Assembly: GCA_944349905.1 (NCBI GenBank)
Contig: CALVNR010000001.1
Span: 66,550 to 130,549, forward strand
Reading direction: 5' to 3'
Source: an uncultured Clostridia bacterium
GTDB lineage: Bacteria > Bacillota > Clostridia > Christensenellales > UBA1242
Length of the DNA: 64,000 nucleotides
Below, piece after piece: positions 10,935-27,474 of this stretch. Under the pieces are notes generated by a model that did no database searches, had not been told where the DNA came from, and saw only the letters and a program-made list of their open reading frames with translations. Position numbers and translations under genes: made by a program. Position 1 is the stretch's first letter, and the number at the start of each line of letters is the position of its first letter.

Positions 10935-12701
10935 ATGAAAAAAAGAAGTCAAATAAAAGATGAATATAAATGGGACAAATCATGTTTATGTAAAAATGAT
11001 GAAGAATTTGAAGAAAAAATTTCAAAAATCAATGAATTTTTACCAAAATTTAAAAAATTTGAAGGAAATTTAAAAAATAAAGATATTGTTTGGGATTATA
11101 TTTGTTTAAATGAAGAATTTGACAAATTTATAGAACCAGCATTGCTTTATATACATTTAAAGTTGGATGAAGAATTGAGTAATAAGGAAACAAACACTCT
11201 TTTTCAAAAAATGTCAAATATATTAAATGAATTTTCAATTCAAACTTCTTTACTTTTAAGTCAATTTCAAAATTTGGATGACAAACTTCTTGATGAAATA
11301 ATTAAAGATGAAAAATTTAAAGATTATAAACGTGATTTTGAAATGATTAAAAAAACAAAAAAACATAATCTCACTGATGACCAAGAACAACTGCTTTCTG
11401 GTATGGATTTTTTTGGTTATTCTTCAATTATGAGAGATATGGCAGATATTGATATTAAATTTGATGATGTGAAAGACAGCAAGGGCAAAATTTACAAATT
11501 AACCCAATCTAAATATGGTTTATACATGCATTCAAAAGACAGAAAATTAAGAGAAGAAACTTTTCGTAAATTAAATGGAAAGTTTGGGCAATTCATTAAT
11601 ACTTTGTCTGAAAATTACATTAACAAAGTAAAAGCAAATTGCTATTTTTCAAAAGTACGAAAATACCAATCTGCTCTTTCAAAAGCTCTTTTCCATGAAG
11701 AAGTAAGCGAAAAAGTTTATCAAAATTTAATACAACAAGTTCATAAAAATTTGCCAACGCTATTTAACTTTTTTGATTTAAAAAGAAAAGTTTTGGGACT
11801 TAATAATTTTTATATTTATGACCAAATGGCTTCTCTTCCAACAACAAGCAATAAAAAATATTCTTATGATGAAGCAATTGAAATTTTGAAAAAAGCTTTT
11901 GCTCCATTAGGAGAAGAATATGTTGCATTAATAGAAAAAGCAAAGGTGGAAAAATGGATTGATGTTATGCCAAACCTTGACAAAAGATCGGGAGCTTACG
12001 AAAATGGAATTTATGATTGCCACCCTTTTGTTTTAACAAATTTTGAAGGGGATTTGGAGTCTGTTTTTACGTTGGCTCATGAACTTGGTCATGCTATGCA
12101 CACATATTTTTCAAATAAAAGTCAACCAAGACCAAAAGCAGATTACACAATTTTCTTGGCTGAAATTGCAAGCACAACAAACGAAATGTTATTGTTAAAT
12201 TATCTATTAAAAGATGCAAGCAAAAGAGAAAAAGTTGCTCTTTATAACAAATTGTTTGAAGAAGTCAAGTCAACAATATTTAGGCAAACTATGTTTGCAG
12301 AATTTGAGGAAAAAGTTCATGCTATGCAAGAAAAAAGTATTCCTTTAACAAAAGATGTTTTGTGTGATTTGTATTATGATCTTAACAAACAATATTTTGG
12401 AAAAGTAAAACTAGTTGATGAAGTTAAATTTGAGTGGGCAAGAATACCACATTTCTTTACACCTTTTTATGTATACAAATATGCAACAGGTCTTGTGTGT
12501 GCAATCAATTTTGCAAATAGAATTTTAAGTGGAGAAAAAGATGCAGTAGAAAAATATTTTGAATTTTTATCAGCAGGTTGCAGCGATAATCCAGTTGAAA
12601 TTTTGAAAAAAGCCGGTTGCAACTTGGAAACAAATGAAGCTTATGATATTGTTTTTGATTATTTAAATGATATATTAAAAAAATGGAAAAAAGAATTATA
12701 A
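10935..12701 (+). CDS. pepF: oligoendopeptidase F (M3B)
   Basis: 588 aa. Zinc motif AHELGHAMH with a downstream E ligand region FLAEIASTTNE. Typical PepF length. Confidence 0.85.
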   Translation: MKKRSQIKDEYKWDKSCLCKNDEEFEEKISKINEFLPKFKKFEGNLKNKDIVWDYICLNEEFDKFIEPALLYIHLKLDEELSNKETNTLFQKMSNILNEFSIQTSLLLSQFQNLDDKLLDEIIKDEKFKDYKRDFEMIKKTKKHNLTDDQEQLLSGMDFFGYSSIMRDMADIDIKFDDVKDSKGKIYKLTQSKYGLYMHSKDRKLREETFRKLNGKFGQFINTLSENYINKVKANCYFSKVRKYQSALSKALFHEEVSEKVYQNLIQQVHKNLPTLFNFFDLKRKVLGLNNFYIYDQMASLPTTSNKKYSYDEAIEILKKAFAPLGEEYVALIEKAKVEKWIDVMPNLDKRSGAYENGIYDCHPFVLTNFEGDLESVFTLAHELGHAMHTYFSNKSQPRPKADYTIFLAEIASTTNEMLLLNYLLKDASKREKVALYNKLFEEVKSTIFRQTMFAEFEEKVHAMQEKSIPLTKDVLCDLYYDLNKQYFGKVKLVDEVKFEWARIPHFFTPFYVYKYATGLVCAINFANRILSGEKDAVEKYFEFLSAGCSDNPVEILKKAGCNLETNEAYDIVFDYLNDILKKWKKEL

Positions 12702-12711
12702 TAAAAAAATC

Positions 12712-12751
12712 AAAAAAGTCTTTTAGTTTGTTGTGCTAAAAGACTTTTTTT
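12712..12751. terminator. bidirectional intrinsic terminator
   Basis: Perfect 13-bp stem AAAAGTCTTTTAG/CTAAAAGACTTTT with flanking A- and T-runs, between convergent genes. Confidence 0.85.
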
Positions 12752-12765
12752 GCTTTTATACTTTG

Positions 12766-12987
12766 TCAGCAGTGACAATTATTAAATAAACAGTTGCCTA
12801 TTAGTGCTCCTGTCAAAAAATATATCGTGTTTATATTGCAATTACAATTGTTTAAACAAGGTGAGCAAATTGGAAACGGACAAGAAAATGACGGAGATGG
12901 AAAAAGGCAACAAGGTTGATTACAACATGAGTTATGACAATTTCTTAGGTCTACATATGAACCTTGTCTATAATAATTTGAAATCAT
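12766..12987 (-). CDS. small cysteine/asparagine-rich protein (73 aa)
   Basis: AAGGAGA RBS 6 nt upstream of the ATG. About 16 Cys in CC, CxC and CxxC spacings. Its own terminator lies downstream. Confidence 0.6.
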   Translation of the reverse strand: MISNYYRQGSYVDLRNCHNSCCNQPCCLFPSPSFSCPFPICSPCLNNCNCNINTIYFLTGALIGNCLFNNCHC

Positions 12988-13043
12988 ATTTATCTCCTTT
13001 GTTTTTGTTATTAATTTTAAAACACTTAAATAGATTATAGTAT

Positions 13044-14039
13044 ATGCTTAACTATTTAGGTATTTTTTTTACTATAATTGGGACAATCCTTGGGTGTGGT
13101 TTTTTTAGCGGCAAGGAAATTGTTGTGTTTTTCTCTAGATTTGGATATTGGTCTTTCTTGGGTGTTTTATTGTTGTTTTTTATTCTTTTTTTTATTTTTA
13201 AGTTTTTGCTAAATTTCGACACGGATTTATTGCAAAAAATTCAAAAATCAAAAATTTTTCTAGTAATCAATTTATTTGTTTGTTTTGTTTTTTCTTCTGC
13301 AATGTTTGCTAGTTTGAACGAAACAACTGTTCAATTTAATATAATTTTTAAAATTTTATTTTTTCTTATTATAGTTTTAAGTTGTTTTTTGATTTTAATA
13401 AAGGGCAGCAAAACTCTTGCAAAATTCAATGTAATTTTGGTTCCTTTCATGATTATTTTGTTTCTTATTTTATTAATGTCAAATACAAAATTATCTTTGC
13501 CAGTTTGCAATACTTCGTCAATACCGTTTGTTTCTGCTTTTTATAGCGTTTTATATTGTAGTTTAAATGTTGCTAGCAGTGGTTTGGTAATTGTAAATCT
13601 TGGAAAAAGTTTAAGTAGGAAACAAAGAACACGAATCGCCTTTTTGTCGGCATTCGTGCTCATGATAATCTTGTTTTTTGCAAATATTATTTTACTTCAA
13701 AATCAAGACAGTTTTGGCTCTACAATGCCGTTTATGTCTATCTTTTCAGTTTGGCAAAATGTTGTTTTAAAAATCAATATAATTTTAGGGGCGGGCACAA
13801 CACTTTTTTCTTTGACTTATAATTTTTATATTTCTTTGCGAGGGTTGTGCAATAATTTTTATATTTTTTTTATTAGTGTTGTTTTGCCTTTTATATTTAG
13901 TTTTTGGGGGTTTGGTAATATTGTTTCTTATCTTTATCCAATTGCTAGTATTTTTTCAATTTTTATGCTTTTTGTTTTTTACTTTGAAAAATATAATTTT
14001 TTACCAAAAAGTACCAATTATTTAAGAAAAAATAAATAA
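13044..14039 (+). CDS. YkvI-like polytopic membrane protein
   Basis: N-terminal GTILGCGFFSGKEIVVFF resembles the YkvI-family G-x-GF-x-SG-x-EI motif. About 10 hydrophobic segments. Confidence 0.55.
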   Translation: MLNYLGIFFTIIGTILGCGFFSGKEIVVFFSRFGYWSFLGVLLLFFILFFIFKFLLNFDTDLLQKIQKSKIFLVINLFVCFVFSSAMFASLNETTVQFNIIFKILFFLIIVLSCFLILIKGSKTLAKFNVILVPFMIILFLILLMSNTKLSLPVCNTSSIPFVSAFYSVLYCSLNVASSGLVIVNLGKSLSRKQRTRIAFLSAFVLMIILFFANIILLQNQDSFGSTMPFMSIFSVWQNVVLKINIILGAGTTLFSLTYNFYISLRGLCNNFYIFFISVVLPFIFSFWGFGNIVSYLYPIASIFSIFMLFVFYFEKYNFLPKSTNYLRKNK

Positions 14040-14042
14040 TAT

Positions 14043-14867
14043 TTAACTTCTTTTATATTTTTTTTCAAAAGGACTTACCATAAAATACATTCCACCAGCA
14101 AGAATACACAGTAATACAATACTTGCCATTACTATGTCAAGTTGAAGCATTTGGCTGCCATAGTTTATTAAATAACCAAGGCCTGCTTTACTTGATAGAT
14201 ATTCTCCCATGATTGTTCCAACCCAACTCATACCAACATTTATTTTTAAAACTGAAATAAAATCTGATAGTGCATTTGGTAAAATTAGTTTGAACAAAAT
14301 TTGGAATTTGTTTGCGTGCATTGATTTCATTAGAAGTATTTTATCATTATCGCATGAAATGAAAGCATTTAACATTGAAATTATTGTTATCACTAGGCAA
14401 ATAAGAACACACATAACTATTGTCGCACCTGTTCCAGAACCAACCCATAATATAATCATCGGTCCCAAAGCGATTTTTGGTAAACTGTTTAATATTATTA
14501 AATATGGTTCCATGACCTTTCTTAATCTTTCGCTCCACCAAAGTAAAATTGCAATCAATACTCCTAAAATTGTAGCAATCAAAAATCCTAATATTGTTTC
14601 ATATAATGATGTCCACATATGAATAAATAAATTGCCAGTTCTTCCTAGTTCTATTATTGTTTGAACAATTCTAGATGGACTTGAAAAGAAAAATGGGTCA
14701 ATAGCACCAGTGCCAGAAAGTAGTTCCCAAAGTCCTAAAAAACCAACTATGACTACTATTTGCCAAAATATTATTATTATTTTTTCCGTCTTTAATTTTT
14801 TTAAATATTTTGCATGAGTTTTTGAATAATTTATTTGTTTGTGTTTCATTAGCTTAGGTTTCTCCAA
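14043..14867 (-). CDS. ABC transporter permease (SsuC/TauC-like, BPD_transp_1)
   Basis: Six TM segments. Overlaps the upstream ATPase gene by 19 nt. Typical nitrate/sulfonate/taurine-type permease layout. Confidence 0.8.
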   Translation of the reverse strand: MEKPKLMKHKQINYSKTHAKYLKKLKTEKIIIIFWQIVVIVGFLGLWELLSGTGAIDPFFFSSPSRIVQTIIELGRTGNLFIHMWTSLYETILGFLIATILGVLIAILLWWSERLRKVMEPYLIILNSLPKIALGPMIILWVGSGTGATIVMCVLICLVITIISMLNAFISCDNDKILLMKSMHANKFQILFKLILPNALSDFISVLKINVGMSWVGTIMGEYLSSKAGLGYLINYGSQMLQLDIVMASIVLLCILAGGMYFMVSPFEKKYKRS

Positions 14868-15604
14868 ATTAGTTCAAAATACTTGCCAAAATCTTTATCC
14901 TCTCGTTTTTCTAGTGGTGTTTTTCCTTGAAAGTTAATTTTTAATTCTTTCTTGACAGAAGCTGGTCTTGATGACAAAATTATTATTTGGTCTGACATAC
15001 TTAGTGCTTCTGAAATATCATGAGTGACTAGTAACGCTGTTTTTTCTTCACTTTTTATTATTTGATAAACATCATCGCAGACTTTTAATCGTGTTTGAAA
15101 ATCTAATGCAGAAAAAGGTTCGTCTAATAACAGTAAAGTAGGATTTAAAACAAGCGTTCTAATCAACGCAACTCTTTGTCGCATTCCACCACTGAGCTGG
15201 CGAGGTTTTTTGTTTTTGAAGTTGTAAAGGTCATATTTTTTGAGTAATTCTTCTGCAAAGCATAAAGTTTTTTCATCTTTATGTTTCTTTTGTATTTCAA
15301 GTCCAAGTATTATGTTTTGCCAAATAGTTCTCCATTCAAATAAATGGTCTCTTTGAAACATATATCCTATTCTTGAATCATTTTTTTCTATTTTTTTATT
15401 GTTTAAAAGTATTTCACCATCAGTAGGTTGCAAAAGGCCTGCGGTCAGTGAAAGCATGGTTGTTTTTCCACAGCCACTTGGACCTACTATTGAAGCAAAA
15501 TCTTTTTGTTTAACAACAAAATTTATATTGTTTAGGGCGTGTATTTCGCTTTCTTTTGTTTGATAGAAATAACTCAAATTTTTATATTGCAAAAAGCTTT
15601 CCAT
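14849..15604 (-). CDS. ABC transporter ATP-binding protein (SsuB/TauB-like)
   Basis: Walker A GPSGCGKTT, signature LSGGMRQRV, Walker B LLLLDEPFSALD, H-loop VTHD. Confidence 0.9.
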   Translation of the reverse strand: MESFLQYKNLSYFYQTKESEIHALNNINFVVKQKDFASIVGPSGCGKTTMLSLTAGLLQPTDGEILLNNKKIEKNDSRIGYMFQRDHLFEWRTIWQNIILGLEIQKKHKDEKTLCFAEELLKKYDLYNFKNKKPRQLSGGMRQRVALIRTLVLNPTLLLLDEPFSALDFQTRLKVCDDVYQIIKSEEKTALLVTHDISEALSMSDQIIILSSRPASVKKELKINFQGKTPLEKREDKDFGKYFELIWRNLS

Positions 15605-15682
15605 TGTTTGACCTCTACATTATCAGTTTAGTTAGATTTTTTTTCAGTGTTACATTTTTTTTCTAAAATTTGGCAGTGGTGT

Positions 15683-15711
15683 TTGATTATTGATTTTTTC
15701 ACGAATATAAT
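15683..15711 (+). promoter_or_regulatory. near-consensus sigma-A promoter in front of the capsid-gene operon
   Basis: TTGATT (15683-15688), 17-nt spacer, TATAAT (15706-15711). Confidence 0.6.
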
Positions 15712-15743
15712 TCGCATAAAAGTTGCATTTTGGAGGGCAAAAA

Positions 15744-16028
15744 GTGGAAGAGGAGGACAAAATTAAAAAAGCTTTATTAAAAAAAGCGCTTGGTTATAAT
15801 GCCGATGAAATTGTTGAAGAGTATGCCGTGGACAATGGCGAGCAGATTTTGCTTAAAAAGAAAATTACTAAAAAACATTATAGTCCTGACATAAACGCTG
15901 TTAAAGTTTTGCTTACAAAATATTATAAAACTTACGAAGAAAAAATTGCTCTTATGAGTGATGATGAACTTTTTGAAGAAGAAAAGCGACTTTTAAATTT
16001 GTTAAAGGAGGAAAATGATGATTGTTAG
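15744..16028 (+). CDS. terminase small subunit-like protein, C-terminal part only
   Basis: GGAGGG RBS 6 nt before the GTG at 15744. LLKKALGYNADEIVEEY...KKKITKKHYSPDINAVKVLL resembles the conserved central block of Firmicute phage TerS proteins. Only about 10 aa precede it, so the usual N-terminal HTH is absent. Confidence 0.5.
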   Translation: MEEEDKIKKALLKKALGYNADEIVEEYAVDNGEQILLKKKITKKHYSPDINAVKVLLTKYYKTYEEKIALMSDDELFEEEKRLLNLLKEENDDC

Positions 16029-16248
16029 TCAATGTAAACATTTAACCAAATGCGATTTTTGTGGTTGCTCAAATTGGGCAAAGTATTGTTTTGCTACAAA
16101 AGGTTTTATAAAAAAAGATTTATGTTTTTGTGAAGATTGTTTAAAAGGCATGTATGAAGCCCTTGCTAAATTGCAAACGCCAAAAGGCATTGAAAGTCCT
16201 TTTAAATATGGCAAAAAATTAAGAAAAAAAGTTGAGGATAAATTATGA
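16015..16248 (+). CDS. small Cys-rich zinc-ribbon-like protein
   Basis: AAGGAGG RBS. CKHLTKCDFCGC...CFCEDC cysteine pairs. Overlaps both neighbours (ATGA overlap with the next gene). Confidence 0.55.
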   Translation: MMIVSQCKHLTKCDFCGCSNWAKYCFATKGFIKKDLCFCEDCLKGMYEALAKLQTPKGIESPFKYGKKLRKKVEDKL

Positions 16249-18092
16249 AAAAAAATGATGACAAACTGGTCAAGGAAATTCTTGATGATTTTAAAGATAG
16301 AGCAGAAAAAAGAAAAAGCTTTGACATGATATGGAAAATGAATATGAACTTCTTAATGGGTAATCAATATTGCAATGTTGGTTATGGTGGAAATATAGAA
16401 GAAAGCGAAAGACAATTTTTCTGGCAGGAGAGAGAAGTTTTTAATCACATTGCTCCTTTATTTGATATTAGATATGCAAAATTGTCCAAAGTTAAACCTG
16501 ATATAAGTATTATTCCATCTACTAATGATGAAAGAGACAAGCAGTCTGCAAAGGTTTGCAAAAAGATATATCAATCAGTTAAGAATAAATTAAATCTTGA
16601 TTGTATAACAAATAAGGCGATAAAATGGGCAGAAGTTTGTGGGACTGTATTTTATAAAATAGGCTGGAATAGCGAAAAAGGTATTATTGTTGGCAAAGAT
16701 GAAAAAGGGCAAAGTTTGAGAAGTGGCGATATTGAAATTTCTGTTGTAAGCCCTTTTGAAATTTATCCTGATTCAACAGTTTGTGAAAGTTTGGAAGAAT
16801 GTCAAAGTTTAATTCATGCAAAAGCTTATAGTGTTGAACAAATTAAACAAATGTACGGTGTGGAAGTAGAAGGCAAAAAAGTTAATACTTTTTCACTGGA
16901 CAGCACAAATGAAAGCATAGGTGGACTAGGATTTAATGGAACTGTTCCAAAAATTATTGAGAGCAACAAATCAAACAGTGCTATTGTCGTAGAAAGATAT
17001 TGTAGACCGACAGTTGATTTTCCAAATGGTAGGCTTAGCATAGTTGCTGGTGACAGATTGGTTTATGATGGAGAACTTCCTTACAAAATAGGTAAAGACG
17101 GAGAAAGAGATTTTCCTTTTGTAAGACAAACTTGTTCAGAAGAACCTGGTTGTTTTTGGGGAACCAGTGTTATTGAAAGATTGATTCCTGTTCAAAGAGC
17201 ATACAATGCAATAAAAAATAGAAAACATGAATTTGTTAATAGATTGTCAATGGGTGTATTGAGTGTTGAAGATGGATCTGTTGATTTGGACAATCTTGAA
17301 GATGAGGGGCTATGCCCTGGTAAAGTTCTTGTTTATAGGCAAGGAGCAAATGCGCCAAAGTTTTTAGATGGTGAAAGTTTGCCTTCCGGAATTGAAAATG
17401 AAGAAGAAAAATTACTTGAAGAATTTACAAAAATAAGTGGTGTTAGTGAAACGCTTGGGACTGATTATGCGTCTGCAAACATAAGCGGGGTTGCGCTTGA
17501 ACTTATGATAAGCCAAGATGAAATAAGGCTTAATGCAACAAGCGAAAGTATAAAAATAGCAACAAAAGAAATTGCTTCAATTATTTTAAAACTTTACAAA
17601 CAATTTGCGTTATTTCCAAGACTGGCAAAAATAATTGGAGAAAATGGAGAAATAGAAATGTTTTATTTTTCTAGTTCTGATATTTCAAGTGATGATATTA
17701 TTCTTGAAGCGCAAAACGACAACTTAAATTCTATATCACAAAAAAGAGAAATGATTTTTAAATTGCTTGAAAATGGTATTTTAGAAAATGATGATGGAAA
17801 ATTGTCAAACAGGATGAAGTGCAAAGTTCTTGAAATGCTTGGTATGGGTGTTTGGGAAAACGCGCAAGACTTAAATGAATTGCATATTAAAAAAGCAAGC
17901 AATGAAAATTTAAAAATGCTTGACGGCGTGGTTTGTAAATCATTGGAAATTGATGACCATAAGTTGCACATAAATGAACATATTGCTTTTATGTTAGGAC
18001 AAGATTATGAAATACAAAAACAAAAAAATGAAAAACTTGAAGAAATATTTTTAAATCATATAAAAAGTCATAAACAGCAAATTGGAGGATAA
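16245..18092 (+). CDS. phage portal-like protein
   Basis: 615 aa and acidic. Position upstream of the scaffold and capsid genes and overall composition are typical of large podovirus/P22-type portals. Assigned from context and recollection, not from a search. Confidence 0.6.
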   Translation: MKKNDDKLVKEILDDFKDRAEKRKSFDMIWKMNMNFLMGNQYCNVGYGGNIEESERQFFWQEREVFNHIAPLFDIRYAKLSKVKPDISIIPSTNDERDKQSAKVCKKIYQSVKNKLNLDCITNKAIKWAEVCGTVFYKIGWNSEKGIIVGKDEKGQSLRSGDIEISVVSPFEIYPDSTVCESLEECQSLIHAKAYSVEQIKQMYGVEVEGKKVNTFSLDSTNESIGGLGFNGTVPKIIESNKSNSAIVVERYCRPTVDFPNGRLSIVAGDRLVYDGELPYKIGKDGERDFPFVRQTCSEEPGCFWGTSVIERLIPVQRAYNAIKNRKHEFVNRLSMGVLSVEDGSVDLDNLEDEGLCPGKVLVYRQGANAPKFLDGESLPSGIENEEEKLLEEFTKISGVSETLGTDYASANISGVALELMISQDEIRLNATSESIKIATKEIASIILKLYKQFALFPRLAKIIGENGEIEMFYFSSSDISSDDIILEAQNDNLNSISQKREMIFKLLENGILENDDGKLSNRMKCKVLEMLGMGVWENAQDLNELHIKKASNENLKMLDGVVCKSLEIDDHKLHINEHIAFMLGQDYEIQKQKNEKLEEIFLNHIKSHKQQIGG

Positions 18093-18094
18093 AT

Positions 18095-18745
18095 ATGGAA
18101 GAATTAAACAGAGAACAACCGACTATGGAACCAGCAAATGTTATAAACATAACAGAAGAAAATGGGGCTGTGAGTGAAGTCGGCTCTCAAAACACATTTG
18201 GTAAATTTAAAAATGCAGAAGCGTTGTTAGAGGCCTATAACAATTTGCAAAGTGAATTTACTAAAAAGTGTCAGTTGCTAAGTCAAATGCAAAAAGACAA
18301 AATGGACGAAAATCAAATTGATGATAAAGAGACAGTAAATCAAGAATGCGAAGAAGAAAAACAAAAAAAACTTGAACAAGATTTTCAATCATTCCTTGAT
18401 GCTAACAGCGAAGCAAAACTATATGAAGATGAAATAAAACAGCGTTTTAACAATTCTTCAATTACAAATCAATCAAACCCTTATGAAGTCGCTTGGGCAA
18501 GGGTTGTGCTTGAACATTTAAAAGATGGCAAGCAAAAAGAAAGCGACCCGATTATAAACAATTATGTTTTGTCGGATGAAAAAGTTAGAAATCAAATCAT
18601 TTTAGATTATCTTAATGGTCTTATTAAGCACAAACCACCTTATGTCATTTCTTCACAAGGCGGGGAAAGAGTGTCAAGTGTTGAACTTGATACTCCAACT
18701 TCCTTAGCCGAAGCAAAAGAGATGGTTAGTAAAATGTTTAATTAA
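18095..18745 (+). CDS. scaffolding-like protein
   Basis: 216 aa, highly charged with predicted coiled coil. Sits between the portal-like and capsid-like genes. Confidence 0.45.
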   Translation: MEELNREQPTMEPANVINITEENGAVSEVGSQNTFGKFKNAEALLEAYNNLQSEFTKKCQLLSQMQKDKMDENQIDDKETVNQECEEEKQKKLEQDFQSFLDANSEAKLYEDEIKQRFNNSSITNQSNPYEVAWARVVLEHLKDGKQKESDPIINNYVLSDEKVRNQIILDYLNGLIKHKPPYVISSQGGERVSSVELDTPTSLAEAKEMVSKMFN

Positions 18746-18833
18746 AGATAATTTATTGTTTTCTACATTTTTTTTACTATTTTTTCAAAAAAACATGCAA
18801 AAATTTTAAATTAACTCAAAAAAAGGAGAAATT

Positions 18834-20003
18834 ATGGTTACATTACAATCAGCTGAAAGTGCTTTAAAAAACGTTTACCTTGGTGTTGTTGCTAATCAAC
18901 TTAATGTAAATGCAAACCCACTTTTAGCAAAAATTAAAAGATCAAGCAAAGATGTCTGGGGAAAAGAAATAAGAAAACTTGCTCCTTTTGGCATTAATGG
19001 TGGTATTGGCGCAGGAAGTGAAACTGCTACATTGCCAAAATCATCTGGAAATAGTTATGTTCAATTTTCTGCCGAACTTAAAAACTTATATGGAAAAATT
19101 GAACTTTCAGACAAAGCAATAAGAGCATCTGCAAACAATATGGGGGCATTTGTAAATCTTCTTTCTGACGAAATGGAAGGGCTTGTTAAGGCAAGTGCGT
19201 TCAATCTTGGAAGAATGCTTTATGGTGACGGAACAGGTTTGCTTGCAACTGTGAAAAGTGCAAGTGGTAAAGTTGTAACTTGTGATAAAGTAAATAACTT
19301 GATTGAAGGAATGCTTGTAGATATTTATACAAATGATTCTTTAACAAAAGCACAACTTAAAATCATTTACGTAGATAGAGTAAATAAAACATTTACTTTT
19401 GAAGGTGAAGCTACAATTTCAGAAAATGACAAAGTTTATGTTCAAGGTTCAAAAGGTTACGAAATTTCTGGTCTTGGAAAAATCTTTGATTCTTCTGCAT
19501 CTTCTATATATGGGGTCAGCAAAGAAACTTATCCTTGGTTAAAACCTTATATTTCTGCACCAGAAGCAGAACAAGAAATTTCTGACATTTTAATTCAAGA
19601 AGCAATTGATAGTCTTGAATTTAACAATGACTCTCAAATTAACTTTATTTCTACATCAGCAGTTGTTCGTAGAGCATATCAAAAATATTTAAGTGCATGC
19701 AAAAGAAATATTGACATAATGCAACTTGAAGGTGGATTCCAAACAATATCTCACAATGGTATACCTGTTGTGGCTGATAGATTTGTTGATGACGACAAAA
19801 TGTATTTGCTTAACACAAATGATTTCACATTGCATGAACTTTGCGACTGGAAATGGCTTGAAGGGGAAGATGGCAGAATTTTAAAACAAAATGCTGACCA
19901 ACCAACTTATAGTGCAACGCTTGTTAAATATGCAGAACTTATTTGCGACAAACCATGCGGACAAGCAATGCTTACAAAAATTAAATCTACAATAACAGAA
20001 TAA
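18834..20003 (+). CDS. phage major capsid-like protein
   Basis: 389 aa with a strong AAGGAG RBS and its own upstream spacer. Motifs such as RMLYGDGTG and the C-terminal DWKWLEGEDGRIL region recall Firmicute phage coat proteins. Position follows the scaffold-like gene. Confidence 0.6.
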   Translation: MVTLQSAESALKNVYLGVVANQLNVNANPLLAKIKRSSKDVWGKEIRKLAPFGINGGIGAGSETATLPKSSGNSYVQFSAELKNLYGKIELSDKAIRASANNMGAFVNLLSDEMEGLVKASAFNLGRMLYGDGTGLLATVKSASGKVVTCDKVNNLIEGMLVDIYTNDSLTKAQLKIIYVDRVNKTFTFEGEATISENDKVYVQGSKGYEISGLGKIFDSSASSIYGVSKETYPWLKPYISAPEAEQEISDILIQEAIDSLEFNNDSQINFISTSAVVRRAYQKYLSACKRNIDIMQLEGGFQTISHNGIPVVADRFVDDDKMYLLNTNDFTLHELCDWKWLEGEDGRILKQNADQPTYSATLVKYAELICDKPCGQAMLTKIKSTITE

Positions 20004-20032
20004 GAGAAAGGCAAATTAATTTGCCTTTCTCT
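20003..20032 (+). terminator. perfect 30-nt palindrome/hairpin after the capsid gene (partial terminator or mRNA stabiliser)
   Basis: AGAGAAAGGCAAATT/AATTTGCCTTTCTCT followed by ATTGTTTT. Confidence 0.4.
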
Positions 20033-20054
20033 ATTGTTTTATCATGAGGAAGAT

Positions 20055-20399
20055 ATGAAAAGAGAAATATTTATCAGCAAAAATGAAAAAGATTATCAAT
20101 TTATTGAAAATGACAATTTGTTTATATGTCAAAGGCTAAGAGAAATAGATAAAAGTTATAGAATAGTTTACAACTTAAAAAAAGAACAGTTTGAAGTTCA
20201 TTGTCTTAGCCAACCAAATGACAGTTATGCTTTTTCAATTCCATACAAAGAGTTGGATGAAAGAACAATAAGCTATGCTTTAAAAACAAGGTGTCAAAAC
20301 ATGGATAAACTTATAGAAGAGATAGACAAGCACAATGAAGAATTGTACAACCAAATGGTAAAACAACAAACAGATAAGATAAAGGAGGCACTATGTTAG
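20055..20399 (+). CDS. hypothetical protein (114 aa) in the capsid operon
   Basis: GAGGAAG RBS before the ATG at 20055. No motif recognised. Confidence 0.5.
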   Translation: MKREIFISKNEKDYQFIENDNLFICQRLREIDKSYRIVYNLKKEQFEVHCLSQPNDSYAFSIPYKELDERTISYALKTRCQNMDKLIEEIDKHNEELYNQMVKQQTDKIKEALC

Positions 20400-20944
20400 T
20401 AAAAGATGTAATAAAGCTTGCAAGTGATTTTACAGAAAATGAAACATTATCAGCAAAAATAGAAAAAGGGACCGAACTTTCTGATGATGAAAATCAAGTT
20501 GTAAACGAACTTGAAAAATGTTTTAATCTTGTAAATAACGAAATAGCAAGTGAGTTTGTGCCAATAAAAAAGATAGAGCAAGTTGAAGTAAGCAATGGAA
20601 AAATTTTGTTTTCAGCTTTTTCAAGCAAACCATTTAAGATATTGTATGTAAAAAACAGTTTAGGAAGAAAAATTAAATACAAAGTGTTTTCAGATTATAT
20701 TTTTGCACTTTGCAAAAAGGCGATAGTTTGTTATAGCACTTTGCCAGAAAATTTGACAATAAATGATGAGTTTGAAACATTTTTACCAGAGCGTATTTAT
20801 GCATATGGAGTTGCAAGAGAATATTATTTTCTTAAAACAAAGTTTGATGATGCAGATATTTGGGAAGAGAGATTTAAAAATAGTTTAGAAATTTTATGCA
20901 GAAAATCAAGTTGTCATAGATTGCCAAGGAGGAGGTGGTTATAA
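20393..20944 (+). CDS. possible head-completion/adaptor protein (183 aa)
   Basis: Position after the coat gene. Ends in LPRRRWL. Size is similar to P22 gp4-class adaptors. TAATG overlap with the next gene. Confidence 0.35.
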   Translation: MLVKDVIKLASDFTENETLSAKIEKGTELSDDENQVVNELEKCFNLVNNEIASEFVPIKKIEQVEVSNGKILFSAFSSKPFKILYVKNSLGRKIKYKVFSDYIFALCKKAIVCYSTLPENLTINDEFETFLPERIYAYGVAREYYFLKTKFDDADIWEERFKNSLEILCRKSSCHRLPRRRWL

Positions 20945-22431
20945 TGTTTTACAGAAACAAACTAACTACCAAGCAGACAAACGAACATACTTTTATATAC
21001 AATATGTTTTCATCGCCAATACAAACAAGCAAAGACGATAGTGTTGTTGATTTCAATTTAACAAAAGAATGTTATAATTTTAAAACACAATCAGGAGCTT
21101 TACAAACAGGTTATGGGTTTGAAGATTTTTCTTGTCCACTAAGCAAAACTGATTTGCAAACAGAAGAAAAAGTTGCAACAAGAGGCAATGAAATCAGTGA
21201 GTTATGGGATTTTGTGTGGTACGACGAAGATTTTAACGAAAACAGATATTATAGCATGTATTACAATGATGAAAACCGAGTTTGCTATGATGACATGTTT
21301 GACGAAAGACCTGCAACATTGGTTATAAACACCAATTTTACAAGCACACCGATAGGAATAAAATACAAACTTAATGGTATAGATAGCATGATTTTGTCAG
21401 GTGAAGGCGACAATTTAAGAGTTTTGCAAGGTCAAAATCAATTTTCAAGCGAAACTGCTCCAAAAATGATTTCCATATGTGCACACTACTCAAAACTTTT
21501 TGCAATCACAGCAGAAGCAAGAGGAAGACTTGTTTACAGCGACAACTTAAACGTTCTTGAATGGAGTGATGACCTTACCAAAAATCTTGACTTTTCAGAT
21601 GGCAGGGGAAATCTAACAAAAATAGTTGCATTTAATGATTATGTGTATTTGTTTCGCGAATATGGCATAACAAAAATTTCCGAATACTCATCAGACAGCG
21701 AATTTTCTATAAGTCATTTGTATCAGTCGGATAGTTATATTTATCCAAATTCAATAGCGCATGGTGGCGATAAAATATTTTTCTTAGAAAAGTCTGGGTT
21801 AAAATATTTTAACGGTTCATCTGTAAAAAATATAGAACTTGAAGAGACAAAATTATTGTCACCAGAAAACTTGAATTGTGTTGGACAATGTTATGAAGGA
21901 AAGTACTTTCTTGCTTGTTTAATGATCTTTGACGGCGAGAAAGTAGGTTGTGAAAATTCACAGCAGGGCTATAAGAATAATGCTTTGCTCGTTTATGATG
22001 ACACAACTTCCCATGTTGATATTACAAGAGGTGTAGATATAAGAAAAATGCTTGCATTAAACAATCCATACAAATCAAAGTTTATTGCTTGTTTTTATAA
22101 TGACAACAAAGCAAAACTTGGTCAATTATGCACAAAATCAAAATGTTTTACTCAACCATTGCCTAGCAAATGGAAAAGTGTTACAACAGATTTTGGTTTC
22201 CAAGGAAAAAACAAAAGAGTTCGAAGTTTTTTAATAAAAACACTCTTCCCTTGTTCTGTAAAATTTGAAAGCGATAATGAAACAAAAACTTTTCAAGTGC
22301 CAGCATCGCAAAAGGTGCAAGAGATAAGAGCAAATGTTTGTGGAAAAGAATTTTCCGTTGAAATAACATCAACAAATCAAGAAACTTCAAAAATATCAAA
22401 CTTTGTGCTTAATTTGGGGGTTGAAAAATAA
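20944..22431 (+). CDS. possible head-completion/nozzle-like structural protein (495 aa)
   Basis: AGGAGGAGG RBS. Repetitive beta-rich sequence. Size and position parallel P22 gp10-class proteins. No enzymatic motif seen. Confidence 0.35.
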   Translation: MFYRNKLTTKQTNEHTFIYNMFSSPIQTSKDDSVVDFNLTKECYNFKTQSGALQTGYGFEDFSCPLSKTDLQTEEKVATRGNEISELWDFVWYDEDFNENRYYSMYYNDENRVCYDDMFDERPATLVINTNFTSTPIGIKYKLNGIDSMILSGEGDNLRVLQGQNQFSSETAPKMISICAHYSKLFAITAEARGRLVYSDNLNVLEWSDDLTKNLDFSDGRGNLTKIVAFNDYVYLFREYGITKISEYSSDSEFSISHLYQSDSYIYPNSIAHGGDKIFFLEKSGLKYFNGSSVKNIELEETKLLSPENLNCVGQCYEGKYFLACLMIFDGEKVGCENSQQGYKNNALLVYDDTTSHVDITRGVDIRKMLALNNPYKSKFIACFYNDNKAKLGQLCTKSKCFTQPLPSKWKSVTTDFGFQGKNKRVRSFLIKTLFPCSVKFESDNETKTFQVPASQKVQEIRANVCGKEFSVEITSTNQETSKISNFVLNLGVEK

Positions 22432-22530
22432 TTTTTTCAAAATGACAAGACATGTTTTAAGTCGGACAATTAAAGACGGAGGTACTATGAAAAATTCTCT
22501 ATCATTAAGAAATGACTTAAAAGGAAAACT

Positions 22531-22755
22531 ATGGATTTTTGGGAAGAATTTTTGAGAGTTGTTGTAAGCAACGGAATTTTTGCTATCCTTTTTGTTTTTC
22601 TGTTTTTTTGGCAACTGAAAGACAGCGAAAAAAGAGAAGATGCATACAGAGAAACCATTGCCAACCTTACACAACATTTGCAAACTATTGAACAGTTGCA
22701 CGAAGAAGTAAAGCAATTAAAAGAAATATTGGAGAACAACGACAATGAAAAATAA
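22531..22755 (+). CDS. BhlA/UviB-family holin-like protein
   Basis: SNGIFAILFVFLFFWQLKDSEKREDAYRETI closely parallels UviB/BhlA (QGAFAILF...KENSKREDKYQ). Single TM plus coiled coil. Confidence 0.8.
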   Translation: MDFWEEFLRVVVSNGIFAILFVFLFFWQLKDSEKREDAYRETIANLTQHLQTIEQLHEEVKQLKEILENNDNEK

Positions 22756-23020
22756 AATAAAATCATACAGTTTTTGGACTGCTCTTTCTGGTGCTGTCGT
22801 TGTGCTTTTGCAAGCCCTTGGCAAGTGCTTTGGCTTTTCAATTGACAGCGATATTGTAACAGGCATCATTATGGCTGTTGCTGGTATATTGGTTGTTTTT
22901 GGTGTTGTTTCTATGCCAAATTCAAATAATGACCAACAAAACAATCAAACTGACAATACAGAAAGTTGTGATGAAGAAACAGTTGCAAAAGATGACAGCA
23001 CAGAAGATGAAGAAAAATAA
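22745..23020 (+). CDS. phage holin (two-TM, SPP1/phage_holin_1-like)
   Basis: KSYSFWTALSGAVVVLLQALGKCFG plus a second TM GIIMAVAGILVVFGVV and a polar acidic tail. Overlaps the bhlA-like gene. Confidence 0.7.
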   Translation: MKNKIKSYSFWTALSGAVVVLLQALGKCFGFSIDSDIVTGIIMAVAGILVVFGVVSMPNSNNDQQNNQTDNTESCDEETVAKDDSTEDEEK

Positions 23021-23023
23021 ATG

Positions 23024-23051
23024 AAAAACGGGCTTAAAAACCCGTTTTTTT
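23024..23051 (+). terminator. intrinsic terminator ending the capsid/holin operon
   Basis: ACGGG/CCCGT hairpin with A-run, then T7. Confidence 0.8.
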
Positions 23052-23103
23052 GTTTTTATAACTATTTTTGCTTAACTAGACAGTCTTTTTTTTAAGAAAA
23101 CTA

Positions 23104-23171: not shown

Positions 23172-25190
23172 ATGAAAAAAGATTTAAAAAAGGTAGAAAA
23201 TACAATTAAAGCACCTGATTATGACTTAATGCCAGCAAAAGAACCAACAAAAATTTCAAAATGGAGAGTTTTTAAAGCTTGGCTTAATGCTAGTTGGGAA
23301 GACTTTAAATCTCATATGAAAAATGGTGGCTGGAAAAAAGGCGCTGCCGTTGCATCTGTTGCCATTGTTGCACCTATCGTTTTGGCAGGTTGCGTGCTTG
23401 AAACTCAAGCAACAGAAGTTGTTGTCCAAGACAAAGAATTTGCTTCTTTTGACCAAGTTCAAGCATTCTTGGGTGATGAATATAGTATAAATCAAACTAT
23501 AAAAGAAACTGTTGAAGATTATGCAAAAGATACTTATGGACAAAACGCAAAAGTCTTTTCTGTTGTTTCACAAGGCAAAAACACACTTGAAGGAAATATC
23601 TTTGCTGTTGTTGAAAACGAAGGCAAAATTCATGTGCTTGAAATAGAAAACAATGCAGACCTTTCTATGTTTAAGGGAAAGGAATATAAAGCAGACACAT
23701 ATTCTTTTGAAAACAATACATTAAAATTTTCTGTTGATGGAAAAGAACAAACTGTTGACCTTGCAGAAATTCCTTATGTTAATGACGGCGAAACAGGAAA
23801 CTTGACAACTTTTGAAAATATAAATTCTTTTGAAAATGCACTTAGTGGTGCTGTAAAAAGTGCAAACGAAATTGAAACTCTTTCAAACTCAATGGACGCA
23901 AGCCAAAAAGAAATTTTCAACCTTGTTGTTTCAACTTTTGCATCAGAAAACTTTAAAGCACAATTCCCTACAATAAACGCATCTTACAATGCTCAAACAG
24001 ACACAACAACAGCAGAGTTTAAGTTTGCAAAAGGGACAAATGAAATTACAACAATGACTTTCTCATTTGCTGGTGATGTTACAAATGGAGACGGGACACT
24101 CAACCTTGACAAAGTTCAAGTTGACAAAGATACAAACTACACACAAAATACAACAACTATTTGTGATGAATATAAAGAAATTTATTCAAACAAAGATGCA
24201 GTCATCAATTCAACAGAAATCACAAAAGAAAATGAAGGCGAACAAGGTGGAGAGTCAAGTGTTGTGATTGACCAAATACAATACAATGATTTAAACGAAT
24301 TTTTCACAAATCTCTCAGAAACAGAACTTGAGAATTTTAAAACTTCTCTTGCAGAAAAAATTTCTGATAGTGCTTTGACACCAAAAATGTTAGTAGGTTT
24401 GTTTGGAGCAGGAACTAGTATAGATCAAGTGAAAGTGCTCAAAATTGCTTTAAATTATGGTGAAGAAGACAAAATCTCAAAACTTGAAGTTCTTTTGGAA
24501 AAAACTACTGATACAAACAAAGATATATCAACTTTGGAAATGAATTTGTCATCAAGTTTTGGAATTCAAGATTTAAAGAAAGCAAATTATAAAGGCAACG
24601 GAATAAAAGAAATACTTGATGAAAATAATGAATTGATTGGCATAAGTTTTGTTAAGAACAGCGAAACTGTTACTTTGACAAATGAAAATTGTTTTTTACA
24701 AAAAAATGATGACGGCTCATATACTGTAATTGACTATACAACGATGAAATCATCTGTTGTTTCATCTGAAAATAAAAACTATGTAAAAGAAACAGCAACT
24801 GTTAAAATTCCAACGGAAGAGCAAAAAGACCTTTTCAATCTTTTAATGCCTTATACAGTAAGTGAAAAAAAAATGTTTAGTCATATAACTGTGAGTTATA
24901 TGAGTAGCACAAATCCGAATTTCCCTAAAAGAGATTGCTATACATTTCAACTTAAAGGATATAATAGTCAGACAAATCACTTTGAACATCATGAAATTGT
25001 TGTTCCTGTCAGTGATGCAACAGCAGATAAGGTTAAAGATAAAATTTCAGGTTCGCTTTTAAAGGGTGAATATAAAAGCCAGATTAAAGAAGACAAAGAA
25101 ATGATTTCTGGCGATATAATGCTTGAAATGGAAGAAAATCAAGATGTTTATAAAATAACACCAAAAGTTTTGCAGATAGAAAAAGAATAA
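23172..25190 (+). CDS. large membrane-anchored or lipoprotein-like hypothetical protein (672 aa)
   Basis: GAGGAGAGG RBS. About 55 aa cytoplasmic N-terminus, then the hydrophobic segment AAVASVAIVAPIVLAGC (lipobox-like LAGC). The remainder is Thr/Asn/Glu-rich and extracellular-looking. Confidence 0.6.
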   Translation: MKKDLKKVENTIKAPDYDLMPAKEPTKISKWRVFKAWLNASWEDFKSHMKNGGWKKGAAVASVAIVAPIVLAGCVLETQATEVVVQDKEFASFDQVQAFLGDEYSINQTIKETVEDYAKDTYGQNAKVFSVVSQGKNTLEGNIFAVVENEGKIHVLEIENNADLSMFKGKEYKADTYSFENNTLKFSVDGKEQTVDLAEIPYVNDGETGNLTTFENINSFENALSGAVKSANEIETLSNSMDASQKEIFNLVVSTFASENFKAQFPTINASYNAQTDTTTAEFKFAKGTNEITTMTFSFAGDVTNGDGTLNLDKVQVDKDTNYTQNTTTICDEYKEIYSNKDAVINSTEITKENEGEQGGESSVVIDQIQYNDLNEFFTNLSETELENFKTSLAEKISDSALTPKMLVGLFGAGTSIDQVKVLKIALNYGEEDKISKLEVLLEKTTDTNKDISTLEMNLSSSFGIQDLKKANYKGNGIKEILDENNELIGISFVKNSETVTLTNENCFLQKNDDGSYTVIDYTTMKSSVVSSENKNYVKETATVKIPTEEQKDLFNLLMPYTVSEKKMFSHITVSYMSSTNPNFPKRDCYTFQLKGYNSQTNHFEHHEIVVPVSDATADKVKDKISGSLLKGEYKSQIKEDKEMISGDIMLEMEENQDVYKITPKVLQIEKE

Positions 25191-25278: not shown

Positions 25279-27474
25279 ATGAAAAAGTTTTTAAGCAAAC
25301 TATTTAGCATCTTAATGATTTTGACAATGTGTTTTGCTGGGACTGGTTGCCTTGAAATTTTTGGTGTTGGCGATGGTCTAGATTTTTTCAACGACCTTTG
25401 GGAAAAGTTCCAAAATGGCGATATTTCGGAAGAAGAGTATTATGAGCAACTTGCAAACAGTCAATCAACACCACTATATGGCACCAAAGTTTTGTATAGA
25501 CCAGACCATTATGACTTTAACGAAGGCTCTGGTGGAACGGAAGAAGAAGAAAATGATTATTATGGGAAATATGCTTGGAGTATTTTAAGTAGGCTATATT
25601 TGATTTACGGTGTATCAGATATAAATAACATTGATATTGTAGATTATGATTTATTTAATGATTTTGATCCAAACAATTTGCCATATCTTTATGATAGTAT
25701 TCGTTATCAAGTTGACAAACAAGCAGTTGTTTCAAAAGCAATCAAATTTGAAAATGATAGTTGGGTTGATGACAACCTAGACAATAATTATGTTATGTTG
25801 TCAGCAGACTTTAACAATGCTTGGACTTGGTCTTTTGATAGTGATTTGGATGGTGATTTAAGTGTTGGGTTAAAGGCAACAGGGAATTATATTAAACCAA
25901 ACGATGCTGACATATTAGAATCGTTTATTTACAATTCTCAAATTCAATCATATTATGATCCTTATTTTTATAACAATATTGATCCAAACGATTATCAAAA
26001 AGTTCAAGAATATTTGGCTGGTGACGGTGTTTTGGGTGGACATTATAGTGATGTATCAAATAATTACCTTTCTGTATATTTGGGAACTAGTTCTGCAATG
26101 GAAACAGAAACTGAAAATTATTCTGACTTTGTAAAGGCGCTTGAATATGTGATTTATAGTTACAGTCTTGACCTTACTCCCGGGGAAGTGGTTGTTGATA
26201 TTGGCAAAAATGGGGACAAGTATTATCAAGTGAGTGTTATTGAAACAGTAAATGGACTTCAACAACAATTGACTGTTGACCAAGCGCTGTCGCAAATCAA
26301 AGAGAAGTTTGATAGGCTTGGTTCTTATGTAGGAATTGCAGAAAGAAACAAAATCAAAATTCAAAACTGGATACTTGACAATGTGATTGGTCAAAATGCA
26401 ATGGCAAATGATGATGTAACTGTTTACTCAGGGGCAACACAAATCACTTATAATGAAACAACATTTGTTGCAACAAGTGTAGCAGAAGCAAACAGCATTT
26501 TGAAGAGTTTGGGTGCTAGTGTAACTCTTCCAGAAAATTCTATTAATACAACTTTTAAAAGCGAAGAAGTAGGCAGAGATTATGCAAACACAGTAGAAAA
26601 AATCATTGACGGTGTTTGTAGTGATGTTACTATTGGTAGCAATGAAGATGAAGATGTTAATGTTGATGAGCGTTTCCTTGCATCAGAGATTATTGAATAC
26701 TATGGCAATGCATTTGCTCCTGGTGGAGATGAAGATCCATTCCCATACTTTGAAGATTTTGAAAGTGGAAAAGGTTCAAGAGCAATAAGACCACTTGAAT
26801 ATCAAAGCGCTGTAATCATGTTTAAGGAAGAAGTCAATGTTCAAAGTTTGGTTGTTGCTTTCCAATATGATGCAGACTTAGACGGATATCAAACGGCAAC
26901 AGGTGAGGTATTTGACGGAAGCAGATATTTGACTATTGAGGTAGGTCTAAACTATTTCAATCATGCAACAGGACAAAAGACTGTTGTTCAGACAAAGACA
27001 GTCAATGTTCCAGACGGCAAACTTAGCGACATTATGGGTGATGATGACCTAGACGAGGCAAGCAAGAAGGCAGGAATAGATTTTGCTCAAAGTGTTGATT
27101 TTGGACTTGAAGATCCTATCTTAGGTGATAGAAACAAAGATTTGATATGTGGGCCATTTAATGTGGACATTGGAAACGGAATTTTAAAAACAGATGTAGG
27201 AAGAAATGATTATCGTGGCAACCCATTTGTTTCACAAGACCCTATTACAATTGTAGGAACAACTGCTGTTAAAGATTATTATGAAATAATAGAACCAACG
27301 GAAGAACAAATAGCACAAGGTGAAACTTATTTGACAGGTCAACTTAATGCAGAAAGATTTAAAGGTAGTGATGGTTGTGATTATTTGGAAGTAACATACA
27401 GAGTTATAAAAAAGGTTGGAGATACCACAACAAATTATAGGTTCTATACAGGAATAACAGTATCAACAGAATAA
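25279..27474 (+). CDS. large putative lipoprotein (731 aa), function unknown
   Basis: Signal peptide MKKFLSKLFSILMILTMCFAGTGC with a Cys-containing lipobox-like end. Asp/Asn/Tyr-rich mature part. Confidence 0.6.
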   Translation: MKKFLSKLFSILMILTMCFAGTGCLEIFGVGDGLDFFNDLWEKFQNGDISEEEYYEQLANSQSTPLYGTKVLYRPDHYDFNEGSGGTEEEENDYYGKYAWSILSRLYLIYGVSDINNIDIVDYDLFNDFDPNNLPYLYDSIRYQVDKQAVVSKAIKFENDSWVDDNLDNNYVMLSADFNNAWTWSFDSDLDGDLSVGLKATGNYIKPNDADILESFIYNSQIQSYYDPYFYNNIDPNDYQKVQEYLAGDGVLGGHYSDVSNNYLSVYLGTSSAMETETENYSDFVKALEYVIYSYSLDLTPGEVVVDIGKNGDKYYQVSVIETVNGLQQQLTVDQALSQIKEKFDRLGSYVGIAERNKIKIQNWILDNVIGQNAMANDDVTVYSGATQITYNETTFVATSVAEANSILKSLGASVTLPENSINTTFKSEEVGRDYANTVEKIIDGVCSDVTIGSNEDEDVNVDERFLASEIIEYYGNAFAPGGDEDPFPYFEDFESGKGSRAIRPLEYQSAVIMFKEEVNVQSLVVAFQYDADLDGYQTATGEVFDGSRYLTIEVGLNYFNHATGQKTVVQTKTVNVPDGKLSDIMGDDDLDEASKKAGIDFAQSVDFGLEDPILGDRNKDLICGPFNVDIGNGILKTDVGRNDYRGNPFVSQDPITIVGTTAVKDYYEIIEPTEEQIAQGETYLTGQLNAERFKGSDGCDYLEVTYRVIKKVGDTTTNYRFYTGITVSTE

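Follow-up and report, generated by a model that had tools for sequence, protein, structure and literature searches.

A conserved podovirus-type head, nozzle and holin operon of uncultured gut Clostridia as a candidate part of a gene transfer agent-like element

We analysed a stretch of 64,000 nucleotides (hereafter the window), which corresponds to about 66.5-130.5 kb of the 191,886-bp ENA scaffold ERZ28614000:ONAT22-1_SAMEA6814496_METAG-scaffold_29. The window is low-GC (about 30%) chromosome of a spore-forming member of the Clostridia, and its host genes include those for IleRS, PepF, ComEC, HolA, Der, PlsY, SpoIVA, PcrA, LigA, S7, EF-G, EF-Tu, LspA and OGG. Our subject is a phage-derived operon of ten tightly coupled plus-strand genes (g1 to g10, 15744-23020), which lies between a minus-strand ATP-binding cassette (ABC) transporter (14043-15604) on its left and a gene starting at 23172 on its right, and which we consider a candidate structural and lysis part of a gene transfer agent (GTA)-like element. 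An earlier annotation of this DNA (the original prediction) had described an intact operon with an ATGA overlap (16245-16248), a TAATG overlap (20942-20946), a TTGATT-17-TATAAT promoter and a strong terminator; these signals, the layout and the gene sizes were all present as claimed. Sizes are given for start codons supported by a ribosome-binding site. Relatives of the operon were found by a scan of one genome per species, which returned at least 585 matching stretches; the locus counts below refer to the best 80 of these, and single loci are named by our own numbers (L002 and so on).

The first gene, g1 (15744..16028), has a GTG start and encodes a short protein of 94 amino acids (aa) that resembles small terminases (TerS); an alternative TTG start at 15723 would yield 101 aa. 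All 33 orthologues matched the TerS family phrog_309 (best 1.9e-7), and 13 of them matched phrog_23444. Because the match is confined to about positions 197-244 of the 319-position profile, g1 lacks the N-terminal part that TerS proteins usually have. The ratio of nonsynonymous to synonymous substitution rates (dN/dS) for this gene is 0.05-0.25. The next gene, g2 (16015..16248), encodes a zinc-ribbon protein of 77 aa with an isoelectric point (pI) of 9.2, whose four cysteines (C13, C18, C39 and C42) are invariant in 33 orthologues. It is found at nearly all loci, had no family match in Pfam, PHROG and NCBIfam scans, and is possibly a packaging accessory.

The 615-aa product of g3 (16245..18092) is a portal protein of the P22/SU10 type (PF16510, 2.5e-18; PF23899, 1.2e-6; phrog_156, 4.3e-39), with 23-24% identity to Jasminevirus portals. 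Between the portal and capsid genes, where P22 and SU10 carry their scaffold gene, lies g4 (18095..18745), which encodes an acidic protein of 216 aa (pI 4.7) and is the least constrained gene of the operon (dN/dS 0.23-0.34). We call it scaffold-like by its position only. The original prediction had named it so as well, and its acidity and its place stood up while the profile-library scans returned no family match. The major capsid protein, g5 (18834..20003, 389 aa), belongs to a podovirus family (NF033394 capsid_maj_Podo; phrog_14242, 2.8e-55) and has a dN/dS of 0.04-0.11. An NCBIfam scan of g5 (E up to 0.01) gave NF033394 at 265 bits (cut-off 80), a weak match to TIGR01554, and no further capsid family.

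Downstream of the capsid gene, g6 (20055..20399, with an ATG start at 20055) encodes a small protein of 114 aa in the place of P22 orf69, a position kept in 65 loci; it had no family match in Pfam, PHROG and NCBIfam scans. The 183-aa product of g7 (20393..20944) is a putative head-to-tail adaptor, named by position only: the gene is directly 5' of, and overlaps, the nozzle gene, as P22 gp4 does with gp10. A single-sequence AlphaFold model of g7 was poor (predicted local distance difference test score, pLDDT, 47), hhalign comparisons with P22 gp4 and SU10_016 were negative, and searches of PDB profiles, PHROG and phage open reading frame (ORF) hidden Markov models (HMMs) returned nothing.

The protein of 495 aa encoded by g8 (20944..22431, ATG start at 20944) gave no match in the scans of sequence-family libraries, and its profile finds the SU10 nozzle, SU10_017, by sequence. 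Its AlphaFold2 model has a pLDDT of 89 and a predicted template modelling (TM) score, pTM, of 0.88. The best Foldseek matches of this model in PDB were all nozzle or tail-hub chains of podoviruses, with Pa223 first (E 2e-19, TM 0.70) and VP1, SU10, GP4, the P22 tail complex, T7 gp12 and the crAss001 muzzle among the others. We therefore assign g8 confidently, by its predicted fold, as a podovirus tail nozzle (hub). One relative, L011, has a single in-frame stop in g8 (12115-13611), which could be a sequencing error or a rare pseudogene. The operon closes with two holin genes, g9 (22531..22755, 74 aa), of the BhlA family (PF10960, 1.1e-14), and g10 (22745..23020, 91 aa), of the Phage_holin_1 family (PF04531, 24 bits with a cut-off of 22; phrog_297, 2e-11).

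As a whole, the order TerS, portal, scaffold, capsid, stem-loop, small ORF, adaptor and nozzle matches that of P22 and SU10, and the operon very probably encodes a podovirus head plus nozzle. The original prediction had called a TerS-like protein, a zinc ribbon, a portal, a coat protein and two holins, and these are borne out by family matches (phrog_309, PF16510, NF033394, PF10960 and PF04531) and, for the ribbon, by the four cysteines. Its description of the operon as capsid-only and lacking a tail has to be given up, because g8 is predicted to fold as a nozzle; what the operon would supply is a podovirus head, a tail hub and holins.

Expression appears to start from a sigma-70-type promoter at 15683..15711 on the plus strand, with TTGATT at 15683-15688, a 17-nt spacer and TATAAT at 15706-15711; the TTGA...TATAAT spacing is retained in most related loci. 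Five nt 5' of the -35 hexamer, at 15671..15677 on the same strand, lies the sequence TGGCAGT. In 42 of 56 loci, the 200 nt upstream of g1 contain a box of the form TG[GT]CA[GCT]-N6-TTG, against a background of 0.014 per 200 nt. We considered reading TGGCAG-N6-TTG as a sigma-54 promoter and rejected it, since such a promoter would need a spacing shorter by one base and a GC in its -12 element, which is lacking here, and since a TATAAT stands downstream at a suitable distance. Further downstream, a hairpin with a perfect 13-bp stem (20003..20032, plus strand) directly follows the stop codon of the capsid gene. Comparable hairpins, which differ in sequence, are seen in relatives: in 50 of 79 loci the 60 nt that follow the capsid stop have a folding energy of -10 kcal/mol or lower, compared with 6 of 66 for the region after g8, and P22 has an annotated stem-loop at the equivalent place. 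The hairpin is probably a partial terminator that raises capsid dosage or sets capsid stoichiometry. An intrinsic terminator, a G+C hairpin with a T-run (23023..23056, plus strand), closes the operon 3' of g10.

The relatives revealed by the species scan are uncultured gut Clostridia, Eubacteriales and 'Christensenella sp.' metagenome-assembled genomes (MAGs) from humans, mice, ruminants, rabbits and chickens. For the capsid protein alone the databases hold more than 5,800 relatives, the best 120 of which are 76-96% identical and lie on contigs of up to 385 kb. Across the 80 species loci g5 is 63-96% identical, which makes it as conserved as the host ABC ATPase. All ten genes are present in one order in 56 of the 80 loci, and no violation of this order was seen; nearly all of the other 24 are truncated at the end of a contig or contain small genes that have diverged beyond the reach of tblastn. 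The lengths of the ORFs vary little from locus to locus. The ABC-transporter flank of the window is common to 43 of the 80 loci, many of which also have ComEC and HolA downstream.

Some observations on individual loci stand beside this pattern. The sole real exception in layout is L043 (1-6200; MAG UMGS1812), in which the capsid-to-holin half follows unrelated minus-strand ORFs in place of TerS, portal and scaffold, through either a rearrangement or a chimeric contig. A capsid protein identical to that of the window was found on 18 contigs, some of 0.2-1 Mb (L112, L113 and L117 among those noted). In many relatives the head operon is a neighbour of chaperone operons, either GrpE-DnaK-DnaJ on its upstream side or, on its downstream side, GroES-GroEL or HrcA-GrpE-DnaK (L020, 3-3578; the starts of L017, L011, L022, L026, L030, L034, L036 and L037; L077, 14116-17588; and L074 and L080, at about 17.6-19.6 kb). 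The window is rearranged relative to these chaperone-flanked relatives and has PepF and IleRS upstream instead.

Every gene of the operon is under purifying selection. In comparison with the nearest relative, L002, dN/dS is 0.04-0.23 for each gene and 0.06-0.09 for the flanking ABC genes, at a dS of 0.4-2.0; more distant pairs are near saturation. Among the 2.9 million viral contigs of IMG/VR only two carry the operon, both as bare copies, one of them (L083, 6485-8710) with an insert of ~2.2 kb that separates the portal gene from the scaffold gene. Identity to the nearest cultured phages, Jasminevirus and its relatives, is only 23-28%. Neither the 80 species loci nor the extra contigs contained a complete, strain-variable prophage around these genes, the finding that the original prediction had named as telling against its own view. 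The check that it had proposed, synteny and dN/dS across related genomes and MAGs, instead showed a preserved order and purifying selection, in line with its view of an intact operon that was retained selectively and is not decaying. We regard it as close to certain that the operon is a vertically inherited, selected, phage-derived module.

A Pfam scan of all window ORFs of at least 150 aa found no large terminase (TerL), protease, tape measure, fibre, lysin, integrase, repressor or replication gene, in agreement with the absences listed by the original prediction. Custom HMMs for TerL and for the sigma-like regulator and membrane protein described below had no match in the window, and no tRNA was found in it. 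Direct or attachment site (att)-like repeats flanking the operon were likewise lacking, as predicted, apart from low-complexity chance matches. Look-ups of the proteins at the window's edges widened the view to scaffold_29 positions 57,695-140,427 (82.7 kb), and the newly viewed flanks held housekeeping genes only. Modules for replication, integration and excision were absent from both the window and these 82.7 kb. With respect to lysis, the operon has its two holins, and there is no endolysin in the operon or window. The locus thus shows three features by which viriforms are recognised (PMC9662315): structural genes of a tailed phage that are resident and vertically inherited, purifying selection without decay, and no module for self-propagation by replication, integration or excision.

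A large terminase does occur in relatives. In several sub-lineages, an intact Terminase_6 TerL gene with Walker A (GGNRSGKT), Walker B and nuclease motifs lies 3-4.5 kb upstream of g1. It is always preceded by a 180-197-aa relative of the Sigma70_r4_2/DUF1492 (ArpU-like) regulators and by a divergent 230-300-aa membrane protein with an SH3-like region, and, where it is adjacent to the operon, a variable surface-type protein of 760-1126 aa comes next. The three-gene module of regulator, membrane protein and Terminase_6 was located in L051 (952-3906), L084 (8561-11428), L089 (8507-11431), L110 (2295-5207), L127 (8489-11440) and L129 (3292-6239). In other genomes the three genes are surrounded by housekeeping genes, and the 10 kb around them contain no head operon. 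At least four such contexts were seen: between GroES-GroEL and HrcA-GrpE-DnaK, upstream of HrcA-GrpE-DnaK (L110), between GroEL and S21, and between DnaB and SerS. The chaperone operons that adjoin the head operon in many relatives are also neighbours of detached TerL modules. The TerL protein is 67-96% identical among loci and has more than 4,900 homologues; the 120 database matches listed are all at least 68% identical, and a more divergent TerL would not appear among them. Single in-frame stops in the TerL gene of L055 (3183-4622) and in hrcA of L102 (17581-18642) could be sequencing errors or mark rare pseudogenes.

In no lineage does TerL lie between g1 and the portal gene, where the zinc-ribbon gene sits; an operon without TerL is therefore ancestral to the family, and no deletion has to be assumed. 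In L051 and L063 the box found upstream of g1 also occurs 5' of the gene for the sigma-like regulator. Probably a regulator binds this box, which makes it a candidate operator for the regulator linked to TerL. No TerL was detected by tblastn or HMM in about 45 ABC-flanked loci of the window's type with 10-kb flanks, nor did these searches detect the sigma-like regulator or the membrane protein in loci of this type, and a metagenome scan anchored on HrcA and intended to bridge TerL, the DnaK operon and the head operon gave four loci, none from the same species. We infer that a TerL is encoded elsewhere in this genome, a view supported by the constraint that TerS and portal still show in the window's lineage.

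More distant relatives have an extra gene of ~300 aa between nozzle and holins, at the position of the P22 needle gene (L049, 13780-14685; L051, 13772-14662; L062, 13686-14555; L125, from 18390). Its product, DUF7934 (PF25588), is coiled-coil-like and had no PHROG match, no PDB match and no paper that we could find. From the position of the gene and a weak match of the coiled-coil type, DUF7934 may be a needle or plug.

Taking these results together, we favour the view, at a probability of roughly 0.6, that the operon is the structural and lysis part of a vertically inherited, podovirus-derived GTA-like element (viriform), in which a remotely encoded TerL packages host DNA. It is carried by a large clade of gut Clostridia that are uncultured, low in GC and spore-forming, and many of which bear the label Christensenella-like. 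In such an element, the single promoter, together with the upstream box that is conserved in the clade and would have a regulatory function, would drive synthesis of the short TerS, zinc ribbon, portal, scaffold, capsid, small protein, putative adaptor, nozzle and two holins, with the hairpin after the capsid gene probably boosting capsid output. Family or fold matches identify the portal, capsid, nozzle, TerS-like and holin members of this set, and position only the scaffold and adaptor. Portal, scaffold and capsid would assemble into a procapsid, which a Terminase_6-type TerL of the kind seen in relatives would fill with DNA. Because the TerS has no recognisable DNA-binding part, this DNA would probably be that of the host, cut without sequence preference. 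The adaptor and nozzle would then close the portal, and the holins, together with a further lysin, would release the particles. A GTA-like device with parts encoded elsewhere was one of three possibilities raised by the original prediction, and it gains from the TerL and regulator module that relatives carry adjacent to the operon or detached from it. A domesticated head or capsid-like particle, another of the three, holds as to domestication and was wrong in detail, given that a nozzle and, by position, probably an adaptor are encoded. The remaining one, a satellite, is taken up below.

Several observations weigh against the GTA-like reading. The element is known here from its genes alone, and at this level it is doubtful, with odds well short of even, that gene transfer is the function under selection. 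The 82.7 kb of scaffold, which reach 25 kb to the upstream side of the operon and 51 kb to its downstream side, contain no TerL, regulator or lysin, and no TerL was recovered from any genome of the window's sub-lineage; the detached TerL loci that were recovered group with other sub-lineages, the 476-aa type, by dnaK, with L077 and not with the window lineage. No operon product is assigned as a tail fibre or receptor-binding protein. Neither the window nor any other locus of its sub-lineage has the DUF7934 gene, so particles made here could be incomplete. The lack of TerL and DUF7934 would also be explained if TerL and DUF7934 were lost in the sub-lineage and the operon now produced DNA-free shells with portal and nozzle for a new function. 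We consider such a loss improbable: this very sub-lineage keeps both g1, the TerS-like gene, and the portal gene intact and under constraint, detached TerL modules are common in sister lineages, which means that the lack of a TerL near the operon says little, and a TerL below 68% identity would fall outside the 120 matches listed. It is still unlikely, albeit less so than this loss, that the particle is domesticated and selected for another role, such as PBSX-like killing or lysis or some other benefit to the host, with DNA packaging incidental. The two holins hard-wired into the operon, the lack of any product assigned as a receptor-binding or ejection protein and the precedent of PBSX in the Firmicutes (PMC12946183) are consistent with such a role, and conservation by itself is silent on what is selected; against it, though not decisively, podovirus nozzles serve DNA delivery, conserved TerS and TerL point to packaging, and GTA-like packaging has been seen in related taxa (PMC12946183).

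Two other explanations fare much worse. The operon is phage-derived and without most phage functions, as an ordinary defective prophage that is neutral or decaying would be, yet dozens of species have it fixed at a syntenic site, its ORFs are all intact with dN/dS far below 1, and conservation extends to the promoter box and the hairpin behind the capsid gene. Likewise, the presence of TerS, portal and capsid without TerL resembles the capsid-forming phage-inducible chromosomal islands (cf-PICIs), and the original prediction had raised the possibility of a satellite that borrows the TerL and tails of a helper. Such an island does not fit a locus with no integrase, replication, primase or regulatory module, att repeats or tRNA, a chromosomal position common to many species (43 of the 80 loci share host flanks), almost no copies in collections of viral contigs, and a cognate TerL that is chromosomal in relatives. 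Fixed synteny, low dN/dS, near-absence from IMG/VR and the distance of known phages rule out, for practical purposes, both a decaying prophage and a mobile satellite: we give the former a very small probability and the latter a slightly smaller one. An encapsulin nanocompartment was rejected as well, as portal, TerS-like, nozzle and holin genes are present.

Other large genes of the window were noted in passing. Directly downstream of the operon, with their own promoter, lie genes for proteins of 672 aa (23172-25190) and 731 aa (25279-27474), neither with a family match; the second has a signal peptide of the lipoprotein type. As candidate tail fibres both were rejected, since they have no family match and are not conserved alongside the operon: the 672-aa protein was matched in one of the 80 loci (L008), and the 731-aa gene lies on either strand in relatives. 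Further downstream are a 2246-aa BspA-type leucine-rich-repeat (LRR) surface protein with 14 LRR_5 stretches (35298-42038) and a 1355-aa protein without a Pfam match (56094-60161). An LRR protein related to the BspA-type one comes after TerL in L089 and L102.

Outside the Alphaproteobacteria only a handful of GTA-like elements are known, and the first of podovirus type, FpGTA of Faecalibacterium prausnitzii, was described as recently as 2026 (PMC12946183). The same work recorded GTA-like packaging in Christensenellaceae QANA01 (6.3 kb) and HGM11616 (4.1 kb) and reported no candidate operon (PMC12946183); the operon described here, together with the TerL module, provides a concrete and testable candidate. 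A broader proposal, which we hold tentatively and at somewhat less than even odds, is that the operon and the dispersed TerL module form an anciently domesticated podovirus-type GTA, present in hundreds of Christensenellales-like species, separate from FpGTA and the basis of the 4-6 kb packaging in Christensenellaceae; a separate origin would follow from the difference in capsid families. If active, the element would amount to clade-wide, host-controlled export of DNA in abundant, health-associated and largely uncultured gut bacteria comprising hundreds of species. It also indicates that a phage morphogenesis module can split into separately kept units, namely regulator and TerL; head, nozzle and holins; and possibly needle. 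For annotation, such loci should not count as prophages.

Our literature search found no description of this element, and FpGTA was the sole close analogue. FpGTA has a ten-ORF operon of podovirus type, with a TerS that lacks a DNA-binding domain, TerL, portal, a protein in scaffold position, capsid and nozzle, as well as a second operon 125 kb away, and its 40-nm particles contain about 8.5 kb of host DNA (PMC12946183). Like FpGTA, the element described here has about ten genes in a chromosomal operon that nearly all members of a lineage of gut Clostridia carry, and its layout is that of a podovirus: a TerS with no DNA-binding domain, a portal, a protein in scaffold position, a capsid protein, small proteins and a nozzle; further parts would likewise lie at a distant locus, and release would occur by lysis. 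The two differ in host order and in that the present element is known from genes. In addition, TerL is inside FpGTA operon I and, in our case, outside the operon and its 82.7-kb surroundings, and the FpGTA holin and lysin are in operon II, whereas here the structural operon includes the holins. By family annotation, the basis of this distinction, the capsid is N4-gp56 in FpGTA and NF033394 capsid_maj_Podo in our case. Thus, the operon has neither the gene order of FpGTA operon I, with TerL between TerS and portal, nor an N4-gp56 capsid.

Among the other known systems, PBSX of Bacillus subtilis is also a domesticated Firmicute phage particle; it packages host DNA and is released by lysis, as we would expect here. 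Its positive factor Xpf is sigma-like, which invites comparison with the regulator near the late genes in relatives of this operon. Unlike the present podovirus-type element with its split loci, PBSX has a contractile tail and a single contiguous locus with TerL and repressor. RcGTA and other alphaproteobacterial GTAs share vertical inheritance, purifying selection, a TerS without a DNA-binding domain and genes spread over several loci; they differ in their siphovirus-type particle, unrelated sequence families, a TerL within the main cluster, and regulation by host two-component and quorum systems. With the podoviruses P22, SU10 and Jasminevirus the operon shares gene order and the folds or families of portal, capsid and nozzle. 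P22-type phages have, in contrast, TerL between TerS and portal as well as needle, tailspike, ejection, replication, lysogeny and lysin genes, and the present operon is fixed in the host chromosome; with its genes intact and no prophage context, it is not a P22-like prophage, functional or decaying. The cf-PICIs are similar in that they encode TerS, portal and capsid and not TerL, but they are mobile islands that have att sites and genes for an integrase, replication and regulation, all of them lacking at this syntenic locus. On the best reading, the element belongs among the GTA-like viriforms, with FpGTA as its closest described analogue.

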